In this document: positions 27,289 to 54,223 of the stretch, piece by piece
Layout of the letters: every line of letters starts with the position of its first letter
Numbering within the stretch: the first letter of the stretch is position 1
From: Candidatus Nanohalarchaeota archaeon
Lineage (GTDB): Archaea; Nanohalarchaeota; Nanosalinia; Nanosalinales; JAFCCC01
Assembly: GCA_017610385.1 (NCBI GenBank)
Contig: JAFCCC010000002.1
Coordinates: 94,570 to 158,569, forward strand
DNA length: 64,000 nt
Reading direction: 5' to 3'
Program-made: the position numbers and the translations under genes
Notes under the pieces: generated by a model
What the model was told of the DNA's origin: nothing
The model's database searches: none
What the model saw: only the letters and a program-made list of their open reading frames with translations

Positions 27289-27441
27289 TTTTCGGAAACT
27301 CAAATTGGATATAACAATTTATATACGTAATTTTATATCTAATTTAAGTGTATAAAACTATATGGGCGAACTTGAAACGTTGAATTTGGAATTCTTTTAT
27401 CTATCTGATCTTTAGAATGCTGGGAGACGAGATTCAAACGC

Positions 27442-27545
27442 AACTGCGGTCAGTTGCATCAACACGTAAAACTCTTACGAGTTTTCCTAACTTGTGAACA
27501 AAATTCACAAGCACAGCGGATTACTGCGTAACTTACTTCACTTTT
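27442..27545 (-). repeat. W element copy 1 (three-hairpin, about 104 nt), inverted relative to copy 2
   Basis: The 59-nt core 27458-27516 is the reverse complement of 35309-35367 with one mismatch. The flanks are homologous but diverged. Confidence 0.85.
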
Positions 27546-27572
27546 CGCTTAAGCCTTTTGTTAAAAAGGCTT
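27541..27572 (-). repeat. Z hairpin unit (aagcctttt..aaaaggctt + aagcgaaaag), downstream of tRNA-Leu
   Basis: The reverse complement matches 46626-46657 at 30 of 32 positions. Both differences fall in the loop. Confidence 0.85.
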
Positions 27573-27576
27573 ATTT

Positions 27577-27659
27577 TGCGAGGGACGAGATTTGAACTCG
27601 CGGACTCCTACGAGACTAGGCCCTCAACCTAGCGCCTTTGACCACTTGGCTACCCCCGC
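27577..27659 (-). tRNA. tRNA-Leu (anticodon GAG), class II, no intron
   Basis: Hand-folded. Acceptor is GCGGGGG/CCCTCGC and the D arm is GCC-AAGTGGTCAAA-GGC. The anticodon stem CTAGG/CCTAG carries loop TTGAGGG. There is a long variable arm, the T arm is GCGAG-TTCAAAT-CTCGT, and the discriminator is A. Confidence 0.9.
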
Positions 27660-27724
27660 AACTGAAACGCCAGCTGGTACCAACAGCGAATTATTAATAT
27701 AACTCATTTTCATTTTCAGTTTAA

Positions 27725-27755
27725 TTTTCGCTTAAACCTTTTACTGAAAAGGTTT
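27725..27755 (-). repeat. Z hairpin unit, upstream of tRNA-Leu
   Basis: The reverse complement aaaccttttcagtaaaaggtttaagcgaaaa matches 46565-46595 at 28 of 31 positions. One difference is a compensatory G-C to A-T stem change. Confidence 0.8.
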
Positions 27756-27842
27756 AGAATAAGAAGGAATATTAATCTTTCTTTATTGCTTTTTTCGTGT
27801 TTTATACAAATTTATAATAACTCTATTAGCCAATTTTTGAGT

Positions 27843-29204
27843 ATGCCGTTTGAAGAAACTAAAAAGTTGGAAGGTCATGAAGAACAGGTTTTCATAAAAA
27901 GAATTTTAGTTTCATTATCTCTTGCAGTTGTTTCTTGGGTTTTAACTCCGGGTCTGATTTATGAACAAAGAATTGTTCTTTGTATAACTGTCTTAAGCGT
28001 ATTATTGTGGGCGACTGCGGCTATTCCGTTATATATCACATCTTTGCTTTTGCCGATCTGGTTAACGTTATTTGGACTTTATTTGCCAATTAAAATTTTG
28101 CCTTTGTTTTTTGATCCAGTAATTGTTCTTTTATTGGGTGGATTATTAATTGCAAGAGCGATGCATAATCTAAAATTAGATGAGAAAATTGCTATAACAT
28201 TGGTTTCTTTGGCTACGAATACAAAAAATATTGTGATATTTTTGATGATTACAACAGCTTTTCTTTCAATGTGGATGTCCAATACAGCTACAACCGCATT
28301 AATGCTTCCTATAGGAATAGTTCTTTTGAAGAAATTAAAATTGGAAACCAAAATTTATGCGAAAGTTGTGGTGTTGGGTATTGCGTTTGCAGCGAATATT
28401 GGAGGAATTGCTACCTTAGTTGGCTCTCCGCCGAACGCATTAACTGCTGGCTTTTTAAAAGAATTAACTGGGAATGTAATTACTTTTGGAGGGTGGATGA
28501 TGTATGCCTTGCCTCTAACTATATTATTATTACCTATTTGTTGGAATTTATTGTGGTATTGGTTTAAACCAGAATTTAAAGAAGTACAAATTAAAAAAGA
28601 AAAATTTAAAATAGGAGGGAAAGAAAGAATTTTTAGTTTAATTTTCTTCTTGACAATTGTGGCTTGGTTAACTACTCCACTTCATGGAGTTTCTAGTTCA
28701 ATTATTGCTTTAGGATCTGCTATTATACTTTTACTTCTTAGATTCATTAAAAAAGAAGATTTAAGTAAGATTAGCTGGTCCACCTTGTTTTTGGTGGGTG
28801 GAGGGCTAATTCTTGGCCACGCCATTGTTGAATCCGGATTATCAAAAAGTTTTATTCAGTTATTAGGTAATAGTTTACTTACTCAACCATTATGGATTAT
28901 AGCTTATGGCTTAATTGCAGTTGCAATGTTCTGGGGGGTTTTTATTTCTAATACTGCTGCGGCTGCGTTAATTGTTCCTTTAATTATCCCACTATCTGCA
29001 CTTTTGGGAGTTAATCCTATAATTTACGCTGTATCAGTAGGGATCGCTGTCTCATTAACTTTTATTTTTCCAATAGATACGCCTCCATTGGCCCTGGCTT
29101 ATGCTACGGGGTATATAAAAATTAAAGATATGCTGAAAGTTGGATTAGTTATGACTTTGATTTCTTTAATTTTGGTTGGGTTGTTTGCTTTATTTATTTG
29201 GTGA
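27843..29204 (+). CDS. DASS/SLC13-family (ArsB/NhaD superfamily) anion:sodium symporter
   Basis: Polytopic membrane protein with duplicated hairpin motifs SNTATTALMLPIG and SNTAAAALIVPL. ATG 27843 preferred over the TTG at 27786. Confidence 0.8.
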   Translation: MPFEETKKLEGHEEQVFIKRILVSLSLAVVSWVLTPGLIYEQRIVLCITVLSVLLWATAAIPLYITSLLLPIWLTLFGLYLPIKILPLFFDPVIVLLLGGLLIARAMHNLKLDEKIAITLVSLATNTKNIVIFLMITTAFLSMWMSNTATTALMLPIGIVLLKKLKLETKIYAKVVVLGIAFAANIGGIATLVGSPPNALTAGFLKELTGNVITFGGWMMYALPLTILLLPICWNLLWYWFKPEFKEVQIKKEKFKIGGKERIFSLIFFLTIVAWLTTPLHGVSSSIIALGSAIILLLLRFIKKEDLSKISWSTLFLVGGGLILGHAIVESGLSKSFIQLLGNSLLTQPLWIIAYGLIAVAMFWGVFISNTAAAALIVPLIIPLSALLGVNPIIYAVSVGIAVSLTFIFPIDTPPLALAYATGYIKIKDMLKVGLVMTLISLILVGLFALFIW

Positions 29205-35160: not shown

Positions 35161-35280
35161 GAACACTTAAAGATGGTTTTGGTTTCATCTCAAGCACATA
35201 TTTAAAAACTTATTTGAAAAAGGAAGTATAGTAAGTTGCTCGCAATTACGCTTTTTAGATAGAAAGTATAATTTAAACTA

Positions 35281-35383
35281 AAAAGTGAAGTCTGTTGTGT
35301 ATAACCGACTGTGCTTGTGAATTTTGTTCACAAGGTAGGAAAACTCGTAAGAGTTTTACGTGTTGATACAACTAACTGTAGTT
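35281..35383 (+). repeat. W element copy 2, ending exactly at tRNA-Tyr nucleotide 1
   Basis: See copy 1. The hairpins lie at 35314-35334, 35338-35359 (GTAA loop) and 35370-35383. Confidence 0.85.
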
Positions 35384-35562
35384 TCCCGACTTAACTCAAT
35401 GGTAGAGTGTCCGGCTGTAGACTTTGGACGCCGCAAACCTTCAAAGGTTTGTACCGGGATGTTCCCGGTTCGAATTAGCCCTTTGTACAGGCAAGCGTAC
35501 AAAAGCGTTAGCAGAAAGTACGCTTCCGCAAATGAATGGTTACGAAAATCCGGGAGTCGGGA
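35384..35562 (+). tRNA. tRNA-Tyr (anticodon GUA) with two introns (anticodon loop 37/38 and T-loop)
   Basis: Hand-folded. Acceptor is CCCGACT/AGTCGGG and the D arm is ACTC-AATGGTA-GAGT. The anticodon stem is TCCGG/CCGGG with loop CTGTAG|A. The T stem is CCCGG/CCGGG with TTCGAAT. Intron 1 is about 35420-35451 and intron 2 about 35475-35549. Confidence 0.85.
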
Positions 35563-42707: not shown

Positions 42708-43931
42708 ATGTTAGAAGATTTCGCAAAGATGGCATTTAGAAATATAACTAGAAGAAAAATGCGATCCTGGCTTACCATGTTAGGAATTTTTATTGGGATC
42801 GCCGCAGTGGTAACTTTAATTTCTTTGGGTCAAGGATTTCAAGGTACAATTAATGAGCAATTTGAAAAGTTGGGACCAAATAGATTGATAATAACTCCGG
42901 GAAATTCTGAAATGGGATTTCAGGGTGGTTCATTAACAACAGAGTATCTAACTGATCGAGAAACCGAAATTGTTAGAAAAACAAGGGGAATTAGATTTGC
43001 GACAGGACTTTTGATAGAAAACGCGCGGATTGATTTTAATGATGAAGTAGCTCATTTGAACGTAATTGGAGTAAAAACAGATTCAGGAACTACTGAGGAA
43101 TTAGAACGTATTGGTTTTTTTGAAATAGAAACAGGAAGACAATTTAGCAATACAGATGGTTATGCTGCGATTCTAGGGCAAAACATAGCTAAAAAAACAT
43201 TTGATAGAGAACTTAGAGTTGGCAATAAAATTCTAATAAATGACGTGCAATTTAAGGTGATTGGTATCCAAAAAACAGCTGGTACTGGCGTTCATGATGC
43301 CGTAATTAGAATTCCATTAGATACTGCAAGAGAAATTTTTGATGAACCGGTAAAAATCTCAGAGGTTATGGCTGCTACTCAAACAGTAGAGGATTTAGAC
43401 GCTGTTGTAGATTCGGTAGAACGGGCTTTAAGAAAGTATAGAGATGTAAAAGAGGGAGAAGAAGACTTTAGTGTTCAAACGTCTAAACAAATCATAAACC
43501 AACTAAATCAAATATTAACTTTGGTAAATGTTGTGTTTATTGGTATTGCGGCTATTTCTTTAATTGTGGGAGGTATTGGAATTACCAATACAATGTACAC
43601 CTCGGTTTTAGAAAGAACAAAAGAAATAGGAATTATGAAATCGGTGGGTGCGCGAAATTCAGATATTAGAAATATTTTTTTAATGGAATCTGGATTTCTT
43701 GGACTGGTTGGTGGAATTATTGGGGCGATTCTAGGACTTATGATTGCTAAAGTGGGAGAACTTATTGTTTTAAAGGCTGCAAATATTGTTTTAAAGCCAT
43801 ACATAAGCATTGAACTGATTGCGGGAGTTTTATTATTTTCATTTTTAATTGGGGCTCTCTCAGGAACATTTCCTGCGATGCAAGCAGCTAAAATGAACCC
43901 AGTTGAATGTTTGAGAGGCCGTATGAAATGA
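42708..43931 (+). CDS. ABC transporter permease, FtsX/MacB type
   Basis: Contains an N-terminal TM segment, a large periplasmic-type domain and a C-terminal FtsX 3-TM bundle (..GGIGITNTMYTSVLERTKEIGIMK..). Confidence 0.88.
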   Translation: MLEDFAKMAFRNITRRKMRSWLTMLGIFIGIAAVVTLISLGQGFQGTINEQFEKLGPNRLIITPGNSEMGFQGGSLTTEYLTDRETEIVRKTRGIRFATGLLIENARIDFNDEVAHLNVIGVKTDSGTTEELERIGFFEIETGRQFSNTDGYAAILGQNIAKKTFDRELRVGNKILINDVQFKVIGIQKTAGTGVHDAVIRIPLDTAREIFDEPVKISEVMAATQTVEDLDAVVDSVERALRKYRDVKEGEEDFSVQTSKQIINQLNQILTLVNVVFIGIAAISLIVGGIGITNTMYTSVLERTKEIGIMKSVGARNSDIRNIFLMESGFLGLVGGIIGAILGLMIAKVGELIVLKAANIVLKPYISIELIAGVLLFSFLIGALSGTFPAMQAAKMNPVECLRGRMK

Positions 43932-45139
43932 TAAAGGATTATTTTAAAATTGCGACAGGAGGATTTATTCATAGGAAAAAAAGGACGTGGTTAACTCTTT
44001 TAGGAATAATTATAGGAATTGCATCTGTTGTTTCTTTGCTTTCATTAGGTTTTGGTATGTATGAGTCTTTAAATGAACAATTTGAAATGATGGGGGCAGA
44101 TAAAATAATTATTACCCCTGGCGGATCTCTTTTTGGGTTGGGCGCTGGCGGGGCCAAAATACTAACAGAAGACGATCTAAGTAGTATTGAATCTGTTTCT
44201 GGAATATATAGTGCAACTCCTTGGCTTTACAAATCCGCAAGACTGAAGTTCAATAGAGAGATTAAGTATGGAATGATTTTGGCTACAACTACGAATCCTG
44301 ACGAAAGTATGCTTAAATCATTTAGTAATTTAGAAATCATCGCTGGTAGAGACTTTAAATTACGAGATCATAACAAAATGATTATAGGTTATCGTATTTC
44401 TACTGGAAAATTCTTTAATCACGGAGTTAAAGTCGGAGATAAAATTGAAGTTCAAGACAGAAAATTTGAAGTTATAGGGATTACGAGTGAAGTTGGAAAT
44501 CCTCAAGACGATAGTCAAATCTATATTCCAATAAATGACGCGAGAGAGATTTTTAATGAAAATGAAAAAATAGATATGATCTTTGCTCAAGTAAGAGATG
44601 AAAACAAAGTAGTATCTGTCTCTGAAAACGTAGAACGGGCTTTAAGAAGATCTAGAAATGTAAAAGAAGGACAAGAAGATTTTAGTGTTATTACTTATGA
44701 TCAAATTAGGGGCACATTCAATATAATTTTTTCAGCATTAATTGCAGTAATTATTGGTATTGCGGCTATTTCTTTAATTGTGGGAGGTATTGGAATTACC
44801 AATACAATGTACACCTCGGTTTTAGAAAGAACAAAAGAAATAGGAATTATGAAAGCTCTTGGCGCGAGAAATAGGGCTATTTTAACAATTTTTGTAATTG
44901 AGGCGGGTTTATTGGGGTTGGTTGGTGGAGTAATTGGAATAATTTTGGGGGTGTTCTTGGGCTTGTTAGTTAAAACCGTTGCTAGTGCTGGGGGTATTAG
45001 TCTAATCAGAGCATCATTTCCAGCTTGGTTAATTATTGGTTCTTTACTTTTTTCTATTTTGATAGGTATTATTTCGGGGGTTTTTCCAGCTAAAAAAGCA
45101 GCTAAATTGAATCCTGCAGATGCTCTTCGGTATGAATAA
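43928..45139 (+). CDS. ABC transporter permease, FtsX/MacB type (paralog)
   Basis: Same architecture as the upstream permease. Start placed at the ATG overlapping the upstream stop (ATGA). Confidence 0.88.
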   Translation: MIKDYFKIATGGFIHRKKRTWLTLLGIIIGIASVVSLLSLGFGMYESLNEQFEMMGADKIIITPGGSLFGLGAGGAKILTEDDLSSIESVSGIYSATPWLYKSARLKFNREIKYGMILATTTNPDESMLKSFSNLEIIAGRDFKLRDHNKMIIGYRISTGKFFNHGVKVGDKIEVQDRKFEVIGITSEVGNPQDDSQIYIPINDAREIFNENEKIDMIFAQVRDENKVVSVSENVERALRRSRNVKEGQEDFSVITYDQIRGTFNIIFSALIAVIIGIAAISLIVGGIGITNTMYTSVLERTKEIGIMKALGARNRAILTIFVIEAGLLGLVGGVIGIILGVFLGLLVKTVASAGGISLIRASFPAWLIIGSLLFSILIGIISGVFPAKKAAKLNPADALRYE

Positions 45140-46205: not shown

Positions 46206-46464
46206 ACTCTTGAAGTTCCGTTTCAGCTTCTGGGGTATCTAATACTCCCGCAACTTCCTCAATTTCTGCATATTCTCTTAATTCGTCTAACTTTTTGTCT
46301 AATTTTTCAATAGATTCATCTTCACAAACGCAAACAATCACAAAAGGGTCTAATGCAAAATGATGAAGTTCTTTTAATTCTAAGGCAAATCCTTTATTTT
46401 TTACTTTGCTTATGAACTCCTTGAACTTCGCTTCAATTACTCTAAACTCCAAAAAGAATTTCAT
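46195..46464 (-). CDS. hypothetical small protein
   Basis: 89-aa ORF; no motif recognised. Confidence 0.4.
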   Translation of the reverse strand: MKFFLEFRVIEAKFKEFISKVKNKGFALELKELHHFALDPFVIVCVCEDESIEKLDKKLDELREYAEIEEVAGVLDTPEAETELQEFIG

Positions 46465-46505
46465 TTCCTTTAGTTTTTAATACAAAACATTTAAATACGT
46501 TAAAT

Positions 46506-46830
46506 TCCGAGCGTTCGGATAAGCTTTTTGCACAAAAGTAAAGGCGCAAAAATCTTAAGCAAATAAGCCTTTTTAGTAAAAGGCTTAAGCGAAAATTAAA
46601 CAGCGAGTTACGAGTATAACTCACTAAGCCTTTTTAGTAAAAGGCTTAAGCGAAAAGAAAATGAGCTTTTCAGATAAAAGCTCACGGAAACTTGTTAAGT
46701 TTCCTAAATCGGAAATTAATGCATTTCCAATTCAAGCAAAATAAGCGTTTTGCACAAAAGTAAACGTGCAAAAATCTTAAGCAAAAATACGTTACCACCA
46801 AGCGTTTTTAAAGAACGGTTTAATCCAAAT
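46506..46830. repeat. array C of back-to-back hairpin modules
   Basis: At least nine consecutive stem-loops. They include the 31-nt Z unit twice (46565-46595, 46626-46656), block Y (46663-46746) and block X (46743-46798). Confidence 0.85.
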
Positions 46831-46981
46831 TAATCTTAATCACATGAAGGCAATTACCAACTTAAGTGACATTCCTTTGCAAATCCATTTTACAAGACCA
46901 CGCACAAGAAAATAAATAAAAATAAAACAAAACGAAATACACTTAAAGTTGTAAAGTAATTACTTACTCAGGGTAAAAACA

Positions 46982-47434
46982 ATGGATTACAAACTTACGC
47001 AAGCAGAAAAAGAAGATTTAATCCAACTCGGTCTTGAAACAGAATTCAACTTTGATTGTGATGATTTAGACGAAGGTCAACGTGGATCTTACATTCCAAA
47101 AATCTTCGAAAGATCAGAAACACCAGGTTATTCTGTCGTGATTCAAAATGGTCGCCTTTTAGTGGTGGCGGATGACTCTGGTCAAGAATATGTTGCAGTT
47201 GCAGCATCATCCCAGTTAACTACCGATGATTTTGCTACAGAAAAATCTCAAAATGCTGAAAAAATGTTTGATGAACTATTTTTGGCGGACGAACAAGGAG
47301 ATCTTTTACCAAAATCAAGAGAAGAAGAAATTTCGGCATTTTTGAATGGCGTCAAAAAAGAACTTGGAAGAATGTATGATAAATCACAAAAAGACTACGA
47401 ACAGTGGAAAAAAGAACAGGAAACAGAAGTATAA
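46982..47434 (+). CDS. hypothetical acidic protein
   Basis: 150-aa ORF; no motif recognised. Confidence 0.45.
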   Translation: MDYKLTQAEKEDLIQLGLETEFNFDCDDLDEGQRGSYIPKIFERSETPGYSVVIQNGRLLVVADDSGQEYVAVAASSQLTTDDFATEKSQNAEKMFDELFLADEQGDLLPKSREEEISAFLNGVKKELGRMYDKSQKDYEQWKKEQETEV

Positions 47435-47539
47435 TAAATTAAATTAAAAACAAAACATATTCTGTTCAAATTAGAAATTTCTATTGAGTTTTGAAAATCA
47501 AGAAATACCTTTAAAAGCTTTGCGATAGTATATTGAATT

Positions 47540-47653
47540 GTTGGCGGTCACAGCGAAGGGGCCACACCCGTACCCATTTCGAACACGGAAGTTAAGCCCT
47601 TCAGCGATTCGAACAGTACTTTCTTCGGAAGGGAAAATCGAGACGCTGCCAGC
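47540..47653 (+). rRNA. rrf: 5S ribosomal RNA
   Basis: The sequence GGCGGTCACAGCGAAGGGGCCACACCCGTACCCATTTCGAACACGGAAGTTAAGCCCTTCAGCG...GTACT... matches the conserved 5S core. The termini pair as helix I. The ends are accurate to within a few nt. Confidence 0.9.
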
Positions 47654-47667
47654 TTATTTTTACTTTT
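47654..47667 (+). terminator. T-rich tract after 5S rRNA
   Basis: The sequence ttatttttactttt lies immediately 3' of helix I. Confidence 0.35.
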
Positions 47668-47670
47668 ACT

Positions 47671-48129
47671 CTACTGTGTGAGGTTCATTGGCAAGTGAGA
47701 GAGTAGATCTTTTAATTCTGAGAGATTTTTTGTGTTGTTTAAGGGCAATCCACTAAAAATTTCTTTAAGGTTTCCTATACGCGGAATAAAGAACTCTTTA
47801 ATGGCAAAAAATGCAAAAATCAATAAAATAGTCATAACAATGGATAAAATTAATCCAATTATGCTTGTAATTAAACCAGCAGTTCCAACACCTGTGGGAG
47901 TTCTCTTTTGTTGAACAGCGCTAAATACTATTCCGAAGATTCCAAGAATAATTCCAATAGGCGGCAGAAGCGTTATACACACCAAACTTAAAATTCCAAG
48001 AACTAATCCTGTAATACCAAAACCATTTCCATATTCTTTTTTGGTAGGTTTTTTAGATTCAACTTTTATCACTTTCTTAACTGGTTTTTTAAGAGTTTTT
48101 TTAGTTTGTGTTGTTTTCTTTATAGGCAT
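47671..48129 (-). CDS. small membrane protein (DUF4190-like Gly/Ile-rich TM hairpins) with a Lys-rich N-terminus
   Basis: Contains GITGLVLGILSLV..., GIILGIFGIVFS and GLITSIIGLILSIV segments. Confidence 0.55.
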   Translation of the reverse strand: MPIKKTTQTKKTLKKPVKKVIKVESKKPTKKEYGNGFGITGLVLGILSLVCITLLPPIGIILGIFGIVFSAVQQKRTPTGVGTAGLITSIIGLILSIVMTILLIFAFFAIKEFFIPRIGNLKEIFSGLPLNNTKNLSELKDLLSHLPMNLTQ

Positions 48130-48221
48130 AAATATATTTAAGGTGAGTGATCATTTATTAATTATCCATACTTGCCCTAAACGAAACCTTTAAAAATTCA
48201 AGCACAGAATGGTTACAAAGT

Positions 48222-48432
48222 AAGCCTTTTTAGCGAATAAGCTTTTTGCACAAAAGTAAACGTGCAAAAATCTTAACCAAAAATACGTTACCACTGAGCT
48301 TTTCAGATAAAAGCTCACGGAAACTTGTTAAGTTTCCTAAATCGGAAATTAATGCATTTCCAATTCAAGCAAAATAAGCCGTTTAATAAAGGCTTAAGCG
48401 AATAAGCTTTTCAAATAAAGGCTTAAGCAAAA
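48222..48432. repeat. array D of hairpin modules upstream of tRNA-Asp
   Basis: Contains a truncated Z unit (48222-48233), block X (48239-48294), block Y (48296-48379) and two degenerate Z-like hairpins (about 48375-48432). Confidence 0.85.
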
Positions 48433-48473
48433 TAAAAACAAAAATCCTAAACCCAAAATTAAAAATAGATGAT

Positions 48474-48608
48474 GCCTCGGTAGTGTAGTGAAGTTTATGT
48501 CTTTTTGACAAACTCTATAGGCCCATCATACACGCCTGTCAATCCGCAAAAGAAGGAGCTTTGTGGAACAGATCGCGTGTGACACGGGTTCGACTCCCGT
48601 TCGAGGCG
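48474..48608 (+). tRNA. tRNA-Asp (anticodon GUC) with two introns (D-loop and anticodon loop 37/38)
   Basis: Hand-folded. Acceptor is GCCTCGG/TCGAGGC. The D region GTGT-AGTG[30-nt intron]GCCCATCAT matches the archaeal tRNA-Asp D-loop. The anticodon stem is CACGC/GCGTG with CTGTCA[32-nt intron]C. The T arm is ACGGG-TTCGACT-CCCGT. Confidence 0.85.
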
Positions 48609-48641
48609 CTCTTTAATTATTCTAAAGTTTCATTACTAAAT

Positions 48642-53952: not shown

Positions 53953-54054
53953 ATTATATCTACATAGAACAGAAACACATAATAATATAAATCCAATTAG
54001 TTACACATTGGATAAGGGCAATCTCATGCGAGATTTCCAGGTTTCAAAAATTTT

Positions 54055-54218
54055 GGGCTCGTAGCTCAGTTGGTAGAGCACCAGGCTTTTAACATGTTTT
54101 AAAAGCTCTGAGGTCAATTAGACCTGTGATTGGGAGTTACCTGGGTGTCGCGGGAAGTTTAAAAGTCAGATAACTATCGTTGGCTTTAAACTCGCGAATT
54201 CGAGCCCCGTCGGGCCCA
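54055..54218 (+). tRNA. tRNA-Lys (anticodon UUU) with two introns (anticodon loop 37/38 and T-arm 53/54)
   Basis: Hand-folded. Acceptor is GGGCTCG/CGGGCCC and the D arm is GCTC-AGTTGGTA-GAGC. The anticodon stem is CCAGG/CCTGG with loop CTTTTA|A. The T stem is GCGGG/CCCGT with TTCGAGC. Intron 1 is about 54092-54138 and intron 2 about 54155-54198. Confidence 0.85.
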
Positions 54219-54223
54219 AATCA

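Follow-up and report, generated by a model that had tools for sequence, protein, structure and literature searches.

The hairpin unit Z with its tail AGCGAAAA is well supported as a sequence-conserved, sense-oriented RNA module that heads a repeated, modular tRNA leader cassette in the 64-kb window (the whole stretch of DNA that was analysed, from a DPANN archaeon). As for its role, we infer with a probability of about 0.5 that Z is an RNA stem-loop module of those parts of stable-RNA precursors that are discarded, and that it spreads by recombination at the level of whole units. The canonical pattern is TAAGCCTTTT-N4-AAAAGGCTTA plus AGCGAAAA, with a 10-bp stem, a 4-nt loop and a tail. The hairpin described in the initial annotation proved real; the natural unit, consisting of the stem TAAGCCTTTT/AAAAGGCTTA and a tail of 8-9 nt, is about 33 nt long and so slightly longer than the 31 nt given there.

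Z is supported as a real, structure-conserving hairpin. A pattern search of the window found four canonical copies against 0.23 expected by chance, and none of 100 shuffles reached four matches. The pattern with a 4-nt loop is the correct one; a pattern with a 5-nt loop gave only a single match at chance level. A covariance model (R1) built on 39 distinct copies returned the four window copies with E values of 1e-17 to 3e-14, and only one further clear relative was found in the 64 kb, at 48372-48405 (E = 1e-8). Alignment of all copies had been suggested as a check for covariation, and over the 39 copies 99.2% of the stem cells are paired. The double change from G-C to A-U was seen twice, at 27734 in the window and in locus L008; four copies (L004, L038, L041 and L075) have sense-strand G.U intermediates. 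In a set of low-GC contigs, stem variants such as AACCC/GGGTT, AAACC/GGTTT and AAGCT/AGCTT retain pairing. Counts of G.U and A.C in the stem, about 5 versus 3-4, are small numbers and do not clearly separate selection at the RNA level from selection at the DNA level. In genomes whose GC content ranges from 28 to 54% the sequence of the stem is the same, and a role in structure alone does not account for this; stem and tail, both near-invariant, suggest a sequence-specific partner. At gathering thresholds the Rfam matches in the window were tRNA and 5S rRNA only, a permissive Rfam search matched Z to nothing but a spurious miRNA model (E = 5), and neither a published description of the hairpin nor an Rfam family for it was found.

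At the tRNA-Leu locus the following features were recognized:

27719-27759, minus strand: Z1, head of cassette 1 (pattern match; R1 48.3 bits, E = 3e-14)
27683-27706, minus strand: unit Y1, TGAGTTATATTAATAATTCGCTGT, a weak hairpin GAGTTA/TAATTC with one G.U pair
27660-27682, minus strand: unit W1, tggtaccagctggcgtttCAGTT, its 3' strand abutting the 5' end of tRNA-Leu
27576-27660 (ARAGORN) or 27577-27659 (Rfam RF00005, 54.8 bits), minus strand: tRNA-Leu(GAG)
27541-27576, minus strand: Z2, head of cassette 2 (pattern match; R1 58.3 bits, E = 1e-17)
27442-27541, minus strand: body of cassette 2, with Y2, hp1, hp2 and W2 (hairpin list, fold, three-way alignment and 81% column identity to 35270-35400)
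27541 to 27513, minus strand: unit Y2 of cassette 2
27511 to 27491, minus strand: unit hp1 of cassette 2, CTTGTGAATTTTGTTCACAAG
27487 to 27466, minus strand: unit hp2 of cassette 2, GGAAAACTCGTAAGAGTTTTAC
27463 to 27442, minus strand: unit W2 of cassette 2, GTTGATGCAACTGACCGCAGTT
27418-27441, minus strand: tRNA remnant, GCG plus TTTGAATCTCGTCTCCCAGCA (sequence reading and three-way alignment)

Two same-strand copies of Z do flank tRNA-Leu, as had been annotated; the tRNA gene has neither an intron nor an encoded CCA. In Z1 the hairpin TAAACCTTTTCAGTAAAAGGTTTA (27756 to 27733), with the stem-loop TAAACCTTTT-cagt-AAAAGGTTTA, is followed by the tail AGCGAAAATTAAAC (27732 to 27719). It carries the G-C to A-T double change, and the earlier reading of aaacc/ggttt for aagcc/ggctt as a pairing-preserving change held, with G.U intermediates in other copies; the 15-nt tail aagcgaaaattaaac said to be common to this copy and 46587-46601 was found as well. 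Between Z1 and the 5' end of tRNA-Leu lie 73 nt with Y1 and W1. Z2 reads AAA + TAAGCCTTTT-taac-AAAAGGCTTA + AGCGAAAAG, with the hairpin TAAGCCTTTTTAACAAAAGGCTTA at 27573 to 27550 and the tail AGCGAAAA at 27549 to 27542. Its start 4 nt past the discriminator (unit 27572, discriminator 27577) and its difference from the copy at 46625 at two loop positions only (taac versus tagt) were both reproduced. Homologues of Y1 are Y2, the Y unit at 35287 and, inverted, 46601-46625. A TATA-like TTATATTA within Y1 (27702-27695) could be a proximal promoter of tRNA-Leu, judged by its sequence; a start from it would place the 5' end of the transcript about 13 nt upstream of the tRNA and exclude Z1.

Downstream of tRNA-Leu, 135 nt made up of hairpin units alone, with no recombinase or element body, lead to the tRNA remnant. 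Of a tRNA-Leu-like gene this remnant preserves the initial 3 nt, the T-loop and the 3' strands of both T-stem and acceptor stem, positions ~4-53 being deleted, and the junction CAGTT|GCG is present at the tRNA of both cassette 1 and cassette 2. It matches the 3' end of tRNA-Leu at about 16 of 21 positions and is not a copy of it. We favour an internally deleted tRNA-Leu-like pseudogene at 27441-27418. The 5' acceptor strand GCTGGGAG that could partner the remnant is absent from the window except in the remnant itself, and the idea that tRNA-Leu is nested in, or lies ahead of, another tRNA with a giant Z-type intron was rejected for want of a matching 5' acceptor strand in the window; the sequence before Z1, which is not tRNA-like, disfavours it too. 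A C/D-box or H/ACA guide RNA was also rejected, no conserved boxes being seen by eye between the two copies of the module described below.

A third leader of this type was found upstream of an intron-bearing tRNA:

35236-35381, plus strand: leader of cassette 3, with a decayed Z TACGCTTTTTAGATAGAAAGTAT, tail aatttaaac, Y, hp1, hp2 and W, ending directly at tRNA-Tyr
35383-35553, plus strand: tRNA-Tyr(GTA) with two intervening segments, in the anticodon loop and the T-loop, parsed by hand

Removal of 35459-35540 in silico made ARAGORN call Tyr-GTA. A module of about 100 nt is common to 27541-27442 and 35285-35381, with 81% column identity. Three-way alignment, based on three copies and short units, showed the cassettes to be colinear, with the order Z - tail - Y - (hp1 - hp2) - W - tRNA. 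The tRNA that closes the first is tRNA-Leu; the second begins 4 nt past tRNA-Leu and ends in the remnant; the third precedes tRNA-Tyr, and since its Z is decayed, Z is not indispensable there. Although it lies downstream of tRNA-Leu, Z2 is not a 3' element of that gene and heads the second colinear leader cassette, and Z appears to bracket tRNA-Leu because two cassettes stand in tandem at the locus.

Further copies form two arrays:

46520-46810, plus strand: array C, a mosaic of hairpin units with two canonical copies of Z and tail
48221-48440, plus strand: array D, a mosaic of hairpin units

The pair of Z units reported earlier in array C is present (46561-46596 and 46622-46657, 61 nt apart), and between them, where a 30-nt hairpin had been described, stands a 29-nt insert with an inverted Y unit. 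Array D contains a truncated Z, the diverged Z at 48372-48405 and one more Z-like unit; it begins about 26 nt after a promoter-like site CGAAAC-CTTTAAAAA and ends 33 nt ahead of the tRNA at 48474. By sequence reading, a TATA-like box lies 22-24 nt ahead of Z1 and of the unit that opens each of arrays C and D, a spacing equal to that of the 5S rRNA gene. About 82 kb of the genome hold five clear copies of Z and several diverged units, all extragenic, confined to three intergenic arrays, two of which abut tRNAs. The arrays recur in a sister strain (L002), where entire units have been gained, lost and duplicated; by eye, the coding DNA around them seems nearly unchanged. The layout of Z, cargo and Z had been interpreted either as processing signals or as a footprint of recombination; recombination at unit junctions is visible between the two strains, and the symmetric element or paired processing signal was not upheld. 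The only other contig shown for the tRNA-Leu locus has both Z copies identical in position and R1 score. When orthologous tRNA-Leu loci were sought in relatives, the flanking transporter had no homologue above 47% identity, and the closest relative found (RpoB'' 80% identical) yielded neither Z nor a tRNA in the 21.8 kb examined.

Other genomes gave a different picture of the same unit, one that the initial annotation had missed: tRNA introns of related genomes have Z as their 5' module. A scan of public genomes returned nine matches in archaeal MAGs, four of them titled Aenigmatarchaeota, and eight of the nine lie inside tRNA genes, exactly at the 5' end of an intron. A metagenome scan anchored on the 3' arm and tail only, leaving the 5' arm unforced, gave 35 distinct copies outside the window with the 5' arm intact; about 20 of these are in D-, anticodon- or T-loops of tRNAs, all in sense orientation. 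The proposed tie of Z to tRNA genes is strongly borne out by these copies and by the tRNAs abutting two of three loci in the ~82 kb. In DPANN archaea, bulge-helix-bulge (BHB) introns of at least nine different tRNAs open with Z, which starts at the 5' splice site; in the genomes titled Aenigmatarchaeota it is directly followed by a second helix AAGCGAAA/TTTCGCTT. Because the default filters of Rfam miss most multi-intron tRNAs (20 Z-bearing loci), removal of the Z-headed segment in silico followed by ARAGORN was used, and tRNAs were restored at 13 loci, including Gly-TCC, Gly-CCC, Ser-GGA, Tyr-GTA, Pro-CGG, Asp-GTC, Glu-CTC and Gln-CTG. Rfam tRNA matches span Z in L003, L008 and L009. The position within the tRNA that marks a BHB intron is thus found for copies of other genomes and not for Z1 and Z2, which lie outside the tRNA-Leu body; folding revealed no evident BHB-type motif at the tRNA-Leu flanks. 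Four Z-type pre-tRNAs were predicted to fold as exon stem (T-stem or anticodon stem), 3-nt 3' bulge, central helix of 3-4 bp, unpaired 3-5 nt (5 nt for the anticodon fold of L008, 3 nt when the intron is in the T-loop), Z and helix 2, and the predicted motif would be a relaxed BHB with a three-way junction. What the introns have in common is only the 5' module (Z and helix 2); their 3' parts are exon-specific. The orthologous tRNA-Tyr introns of L007, L011 and L109 have identical stems and differing loops, which points to purifying selection on the stems in place.

A longer Z-like hairpin occurs inside 23S rRNA genes. Z-like hairpins also stand between ORFs of the low-GC contig set, which is mobile-element-like, so the link to stable RNAs is not exclusive; the position of TATA upstream of Z is mixed in these contigs. 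Units Y, hp1, hp2, W and the others of the window did not turn up in the loci retrieved elsewhere. A viral origin was rejected, the Z pattern having no match in IMG/VR. A protein of the low-GC contigs had no match in phage or plasmid collections, and PHROGs searches of these contigs gave a Holliday-junction resolvase and a DNA methyltransferase only.

According to the reading that we prefer, Z would be transcribed within leaders, spacers and introns, precursor portions that are probably discarded later, and would fold alone into a very stable hairpin beside an RNA 5' end or a cleavage site. In introns it may form the intron-side helix next to the 3-nt bulge that bears the 5' splice site; in leaders it may keep the tRNA body free of pairing with spacer RNA. 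The copies would multiply and be reshuffled by recombination of whole units at junctions of the type ...CTTAAGC(G)AAA(A)|TAAGC....

Possibly, though we think it rather unlikely, Z is instead a selfish repetitive hairpin with no host function, REP- or MITE-like or the core of a mobile intron, which spread into tolerant transcribed DNA (tRNA flanks, spacers and the bodies of tRNAs and rRNAs), the copies in tRNA and rRNA bodies being removable by a splicing endonuclease of relaxed specificity. Many near-identical copies at unrelated sites in several genomes, the gain and loss of whole units between strains, the occurrence in the low-GC contigs and the decayed Z of the tRNA-Tyr cassette all speak for this, and unexplained transposition of tRNA introns in the Thermoproteales (Fujishima 2010, as summarised in PMC4090602) provides a precedent. 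However, ORF scans and JGI Pfam calls found no transposase, integrase or RAYT-like gene in the window. The tailoring of the 3' part of each intron to its exon means that the intron does not move as a unit, and both the selection on the tRNA-Tyr intron stems and the uniform sense orientation of all ~20 intron copies examined are difficult to reconcile with a hairpin that serves no host. Z resembles bacterial REP/BIME sequences as a short, sequence-conserved palindrome that stands singly or in mosaic clusters, varies between strains and is located in transcribed intergenic DNA; unlike these, it has an archaeal host and a strand-specific tail and serves as an intron head inside tRNA genes, and no RAYT (IS200/IS605-like Y1) transposase was found in the window or 18 kb of its flanks. 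Unlike a MITE, it is a 24-nt hairpin with a loop of 3-7 nt and no internal body, and the window copies have no target-site duplication.

Unlikely, to our mind, is a further reading in which Z is the recognition and mobility core of a mobile hairpin element, as yet undescribed, that DPANN archaea share with their mobile elements and that inserts in sense orientation into transcribed DNA or RNA. A copy landing in a tRNA or rRNA body would give rise to a BHB intron there. Extragenic hairpin repeats and tRNA introns would then represent the same element in two states, and TAAGCC...GGCTTAAGCGAAAA would be bound by a sequence-specific protein dedicated to it. To our knowledge, the gain of archaeal tRNA introns at many positions is an open question, the 'intron transposition' of the Thermoproteales being a deduction whose mechanism is not known. 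Here one clade presents one 33-nt module in several states (intron head in three tRNA loops, leader head, arrays, between ORFs), which makes a link between repetitive extragenic hairpins and the birth of introns testable; a mobile core of this kind, if true, would give a concrete mechanism for intron gain.

The families of conserved ('transposed') BHB tRNA introns in the Thermoproteales (Fujishima et al. 2010, summarised in PMC4090602) are among the closest known systems. Like those introns, the Z introns would be cut out by the splicing endonuclease, acting on relaxed BHB motifs, and no mechanism of spread is known. Unlike them, Z belongs to a DPANN lineage of the Aenigmatarchaeota type, its introns share only the 5' module with an exon-specific 3' part, it occurs also outside tRNA bodies (leader cassettes, intergenic arrays, between ORFs), and a longer Z-like hairpin is present in 23S rRNA genes. 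Split tRNAs of Nanoarchaeum equitans and Caldivirga maquilingensis have leaders or trailers homologous to introns (Randau 2005, Fujishima 2009, both as cited in PMC4090602). Relative to that account, cassette 2 is similar in placing intron-type sequence upstream of a tRNA segment, a 3' end piece; it differs in that no complementary 5' half or trailer is found in the window and in that the remnant keeps its first 3 nt and resumes at ~53, not a known split site, and cassettes 1 and 3 precede complete tRNAs. The model for Caldiarchaeum subterraneum, disruption of tRNA genes by integration of mobile elements (PMC3293823), shares with our locus a stray tRNA fragment beside a tRNA gene and variation between strains of a natural population, but not the recombinase or element body beside tRNA-Leu, nor is the remnant a copy of the tRNA-Leu 3' end.

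It appears improbable that Z is a transcription terminator or insulator whose 5'-arm T-run stops RNA polymerase, so that Z2 ends the tRNA-Leu transcript and copies after ORFs end mRNAs. The T5 of the Z2 5' arm (cctttttaac), starting 10 nt past the tRNA 3' end, is the first such run after tRNA-Leu; tRNA-Tyr, tRNA-Lys and the 5S rRNA gene are directly followed by runs of T5-T7, the tRNA at 48474 by T3 only. It is common for Z to overlap or follow a stop codon in L004 and the low-GC contigs, and as a palindrome it yields a T-run on both strands. The archaeal oligo-T feature (at least five T directly downstream) is present at Z2 but absent from Z1, which has only T4 and no upstream gene on the same strand. 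Against a terminator stands that archaeal intrinsic termination relies on oligo-T and is not known to require a hairpin. In addition, Z stands in ~20 tRNA introns, several with T5-T6 (L012, L028, L075, L095 and L119); a terminator inside an intron would abort the tRNA, so these copies argue against termination as the role of the family, and the many successive units of arrays C and D are unexpected for terminators.

A palindromic site acting at the DNA level, serving either a dimeric regulator as operator or a DNA enzyme as recombination or hairpin site, is very unlikely. The palindrome is a near-perfect 10+10 of conserved sequence with a free loop, the junction GCTTAAGC is palindromic too, recombination between strains is by units, and Z1, 87 nt upstream of the transporter start at 27843, is part of a divergent promoter region. 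These features are outweighed by the strand-specific tail together with the uniform sense orientation in tRNA introns, by the location of Z within tRNA and rRNA genes, by the sense-strand G.U intermediates of four copies and by the lack of a candidate enzyme encoded nearby.

We give very little weight to Z1 and Z2 as a matched processing-signal pair, working through long-range pairing or as a pair of cleavage sites for excision of the tRNA-Leu precursor. The two copies share the strand of the tRNA, the position of Z2 4 nt past the discriminator has the context AAA|TAAGCC seen at T-loop 5' splice sites, and array C has a second arrangement of Z, 29 nt and Z. Yet the layout is accounted for by cassette colinearity without any pair, Z1 is 73 nt from the tRNA with Y1 and W1 intervening, and none of the 35 other distinct copies inspected flanks a tRNA on both sides, contrary to the bracket initially suggested. 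Long-range Z1-Z2 pairing or a BHB around tRNA-Leu was rejected, since folding gave independent local hairpins; pairing between the units is further opposed by the double change, which keeps pairing within the unit and creates an A.C mismatch in a Z1-Z2 duplex.

Hardly credible, finally, is a CRISPR-repeat-like unit with a hairpin and an 8-nt ...GAAA handle, processed by a Cas6-type enzyme, with array C as a two-repeat mini-array: the unit has ~32 nt, the two copies are 61 nt apart with a 29-nt insert, and the tails ATCGAAAG and ATTGAAAAG of the low-GC contigs resemble what we take to be archaeal 5' handles, but no cas genes or domains were found in the window ORFs scanned, at most two identical repeats stand among different hairpins where a CRISPR array has at least three regular direct repeats, and elsewhere most copies are single and inside tRNA introns. 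For annotators, the tRNA genes of these DPANN archaea carry long structured leaders and multiple introns that are missed by standard finders.

The tRNA-Leu(GAG) gene was found to be flanked by two copies of the Z hairpin unit, both on its own strand, as the initial annotation had described. Its statements on these copies were likewise borne out: the downstream copy (Z2) starts 4 nt past the tRNA discriminator and differs from the copy at 46625 at two positions, both in the loop, the upstream copy (Z1) carries the double change aaacc/ggttt, and the 15-nt tail of Z1 is also present at 46587-46601.

27577-27659, minus strand: tRNA-Leu(GAG), found by ARAGORN and Rfam
27573 to 27542, minus strand: Z2, TAAGCCTTTT-taac-AAAAGGCTTA + AGCGAAAA, downstream of tRNA-Leu
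27756 to 27719, minus strand: Z1, TAAACCTTTT-cagt-AAAAGGTTTA + AGCGAAAATTAAAC, upstream of tRNA-Leu
46564-46595, plus strand: Z copy in array C
46625-46656, plus strand: Z copy in array C

The Z pattern was found four times in the window by pattern search (0.23 expected; four reached in 0 of 100 shuffles). A covariance model built on 39 distinct Z copies recovered these four with E = 1e-17 to 3e-14 and, over the whole window, added one clear relative at 48372-48405 (E = 1e-8) together with some weak units; all its matches were confined to the same intergenic hairpin arrays.

Two scans were made for Z in other DNA. The exact pattern, searched in one genome per species, gave 9 loci, spread over seven archaeal MAGs (four with the title Candidatus Aenigmatarchaeota), and in 8 of the 9 Z was inside a tRNA gene, at the start of an intron. 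The metagenome scan, anchored on the 3' arm and tail only with the 5' arm free to vary, gave at least 120 loci; among the matches listed, the hairpin was complete in about one third, its 5' arm intact, and the others were chance matches in coding DNA. The proposed tie of Z to tRNA genes was upheld, as about 20 of the 35 distinct non-window copies among the matches listed head tRNA introns; read along the tRNA sense strand, the tail follows the hairpin on its 3' side in every one of them. The loci fall by intron position as follows:

D-loop introns: L028, L055, L075, L082
Anticodon-loop introns: L003, L005, L006, L008, L009, L056, L063, L095, L119, L125
T-loop introns: L007, L011, L109, L010, L012, L041

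When the Z-headed segment was excised in silico, ARAGORN recovered tRNAs in 13 loci, including Gly-TCC, Gly-CCC, Ser-GGA, Tyr-GTA, Pro-CGG, Asp-GTC, Glu-CTC and Gln-CTG, and in three loci the Rfam tRNA model match ran across Z. In these introns the Z tail forms one side, the 5' strand, of a further helix (AAGCGAAA/TTTCGCTT; helix 2), and the 3' end of the intron can pair with the local exon. The predicted fold has the order exon stem, 3-nt bulge, 3-4 bp helix, 3-5 unpaired nt, Z and helix 2, placing Z where the intron-side helix of a relaxed bulge-helix-bulge (BHB) motif is expected. In several Z-bearing genomes (L011, L041, L109) a 5S rRNA gene adjoins the Z-intron tRNAs, and the 5S rRNA match in L005 (2829-3010, minus strand) spans 182 nt against a model of 120 positions, so this gene probably carries an insertion.

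The covariation check suggested earlier was carried out over the 39 aligned copies, and 99.2% of the stem cells were paired. The stem sequence is near-invariant, and the loop is variable both in its bases and in its length (3-7 nt). The double change of Z1, G-C to A-U, recurs in L008 with a G.U intermediate in L004; L038, L041 and L075 carry other single G.U or U.G pairs, and L025 and L072/L084 carry mismatches. Many pairing-preserving variants (AACCC/GGGTT, AAACC/GGTTT, AAGCT/AGCTT; outer pairs T-A, A-T, G-C) were found in a set of low-GC contigs. In the orthologous tRNA-Tyr T-loop introns of three related genomes (L007, L011, L109), the stems and 75 nt of flank are identical and the 4-nt Z loops (GTGA, GTTG, GTAA) differ, which suggests a much higher rate of change in the loop than around it. 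Taken together, the pairing, the variants that preserve it and the identical stems with differing loops indicate that the Z hairpin is under selection. That the stem stays the same in genomes ranging from 28 to 54% G+C suggests either a sequence-specific partner or a recent spread.

Within the window, perfect short hairpins are concentrated in four intergenic places:

27440-27760: array A, around tRNA-Leu
35236-35381: array B, ending directly at the intron-bearing tRNA-Tyr(GTA)
46520-46810: array C
48221-48440: array D, ending 33 nt upstream of the tRNA at 48474

As RNA the arrays are predicted to fold like beads on a string (z-scores -3.9 and -5.6). They are mosaics drawn from a small unit set, many units having the frame TAAGC...GCTTAAGC(G)AAA(A) in common. 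Comparison of window 46206-48560 with a 2.3-kb contig of a sister strain (L002 1-2308, JGI 3300033153) revealed coding DNA that looks almost identical by eye. The sister strain lacks 77 nt, two whole units, in array C, and its array D contains additional Z-like units (L002 2003-2171) and is missing two other units; where the window has one of its U.G pairs, the sister strain has U-A. The whole-unit differences indicate that the arrays evolve by gain, loss and duplication of units.

A module of about 100 nt, made of the hairpin units Y, hp1, hp2 and W, is present 3' of tRNA-Leu (27541-27442) and immediately 5' of tRNA-Tyr (35285-35381). Three-way alignment resolved three colinear cassettes, the second ending in a tRNA remnant:

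Cassette 1: Z1 - tail - Y1 - W1 - tRNA-Leu
Cassette 2: Z2 - tail - Y2 - hp1 - hp2 - W2 - GCG + TTTGAATCTCGTCTCCCAGCA
Cassette 3: decayed Z (TACGCTTTTTAGATAGAAAGTAT) - tail - Y - hp1 - hp2 - W - tRNA-Tyr
27418-27441, minus strand: GCG + TTTGAATCTCGTCTCCCAGCA, the 5' tip and 3' end of a tRNA-Leu-like gene, after the W2 hairpin

In cassettes 1 and 2, CAGTT closes the W unit and GCG comes next; in cassette 2 this is followed directly by a T-loop, a T-stem 3' strand and an acceptor-stem 3' strand, matching tRNA-Leu at about 16 of 21 positions. The segment 27441-27418 is read, from its sequence, as an internally deleted tRNA-Leu-like pseudogene, which would make Z2 the head of the next cassette instead of a 3' signal belonging to tRNA-Leu. 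In principle the segment could also be the 3' half of a split tRNA; no matching 5' acceptor strand and no partner were found within the window. Two tandem cassettes would thus be the ordinary structural explanation of the apparent bracket. The junction CGCAAAA|TAAGCC resembles the usual unit junction AAGCAAAA|TAAGCC (e.g. 48368-48380), which suggests joining by microhomology. In all three cassettes (C/T)AGTT is the 3' strand of a hairpin or helix (27442-27446, 27660-27664, 35377-35381) that stops at or beside the 5' end of the tRNA (no more than one base away in the case of tRNA-Tyr), and a compensatory G-C to A-T change separates two W copies; this abutting helix may have a role in 5' end processing.

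Promoter-like boxes precede several of these elements. The 5S rRNA gene starts 22 nt past the end of a TTTAAAAG box (GAAATA-CCTTTAAAAG, box 47510-47517), array D 24 nt past a box of the same type (CGAAAC-CTTTAAAAA, 48183-48196), array C 23 nt past ATTTAAAT, and Z1 23 nt past a weaker box (CGAAAAA-AGC-AATAAAGA). The spacing fits transcripts that would start at the first hairpin unit, although TATA-like strings are common in this AT-rich DNA. Alternatively, TTATATTA inside Y1 could direct a tRNA-Leu start about 13 nt upstream of the gene.

We consider Z to be a stem-loop module that belongs, as RNA, to those portions of stable-RNA precursors that are discarded, heading leader cassettes here and BHB introns in relatives, with the bracket formed by two tandem cassettes; we give this reading a probability of about one half. 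Z would act as a self-contained helix beside a 5' end or a site of cleavage, and a specific factor may bind it.

The alternative that Z is a purely selfish repeat is weaker and has perhaps half the standing. Z-like hairpins also occur outside tRNA genes. Ten contigs of 28-30% G+C (L021, L044, L048, L071, L085, L094, L102, L110, L112, L114) are dense in small ORFs (Holliday-junction resolvase, DNA methyltransferase, P-loop protein, many ORFans) and have Z-like hairpins with NNCGAAA tails between the ORFs, frequently overlapping the upstream stop codon and 9-12 nt ahead of the next start. No tRNAs were found in them, and there was no match in phage/plasmid collections (searched with one protein) or IMG/VR (searched with the Z pattern). 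A longer Z-like hairpin lies within archaeal 23S rRNA genes (L080 8263-8310; L115 about 2060-2100), with the same tail AAGCGAAAA and AGTGCGTAACAGCTCACC right after it; the L080 gene is 4.4 kb long where the model has 2,987 positions, and therefore has several insertions. An intergenic Z-like cluster, CAAGCCTTTT...AAAAGGCTT + GAGCGAAAA or AAGCGAAAA, was also seen in an archaeal contig of 44% G+C (L086 960-1180; also L072, L084), where a 10-nt direct repeat, GGCGTGATCA, on either side of one unit may represent either a duplicated target or a splice junction.

A terminator or insulator is unlikely. The first T-run downstream of tRNA-Leu is a T5 within the Z2 5' arm; plain T5-T7 runs follow tRNA-Tyr, tRNA-Lys and the 5S rRNA gene, and T5-T6 copies of Z inside introns speak against this function. 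A DNA-level palindromic site is more doubtful still, given the uniform sense orientation and the positions of Z inside genes. The earlier proposal that Z1 and Z2 are paired processing signals around tRNA-Leu was not sustained and is now very improbable, since the compensation lies within one unit, the cassettes are colinear and no second case was found among the 35 other distinct Z copies inspected. A CRISPR-like unit is the least probable of all. No transposase, integrase or cas domains were found among the window ORFs scanned.

Among known systems, Z comes closest to the conserved families of introns in Thermoproteales tRNAs, which have been taken as evidence of intron transposition (PMC4090602); the homology of split-tRNA leaders to introns is a related idea. 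Z differs from the Thermoproteales families in that only the 5' module is common to Z-headed introns, and in that it also occurs outside tRNA bodies in strain-variable arrays, in mobile-element-like contigs and, as a longer Z-like hairpin, in 23S rRNA genes. A mobile-element model of tRNA disruption has been proposed (PMC3293823), and many disrupted tRNA genes are known in DPANN lineages (PMC5829648). Searches of the literature and Rfam found no published description or family for the Z module, which connects extragenic hairpin repeats with tRNA intron heads and bears on the origin of archaeal tRNA introns.

The window (33% G+C; source assemblies JGI metagenomes 3300033144 and 3300033145) has an ordinary chromosomal context, with DnaK/GrpE/DnaJ, pyruvate:ferredoxin oxidoreductase, hydrogenase, transporters and RNA polymerase, including a split archaeal B subunit with Rpb5, A' and NusA-KH genes near it. 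The best named relatives of RpoB'' are Nanohaloarchaea (60-65% identity), with one further relative at 80%, which assigns the window to a DPANN archaeon. Beside a lone 5S rRNA gene, the window has three tRNAs with long or multiple introns:

35383-35553, plus strand: tRNA-Tyr(GTA), two intervening segments (anticodon loop, T-loop)
48474-48609, plus strand: tRNA, Gln-TTG (ARAGORN, relaxed threshold only), 135 nt
54054-54219, plus strand: tRNA, Lys-TTT (ARAGORN), 165 nt
47540-47654, plus strand: lone 5S rRNA gene

The tRNA-Tyr gene was parsed by hand and then checked computationally; default ARAGORN and Rfam at gathering score both missed it. A short Z-like hairpin, CAAACCTT-ca-AAGGTTTG, lies at the end of its first intron, and its T-loop intron starts with TAGCC and a hairpin, CTTTGTAC/GTACAAAG. 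The Gln-TTG and Lys-TTT genes, with their long or multiple introns, reach an Rfam score of just 37 bits. About 9.5 kb beyond the right end of the window, the EF-2/EF-G gene of this genome (L134 21264-21803) was called with a 1,264-residue product carrying intein and LAGLIDADG domains. Two adjacent MacB/FtsX permease paralogues contain a 300-nt direct repeat of 79% identity (43416-43715 and 44630-44929), an ordinary case of gene duplication in tandem.
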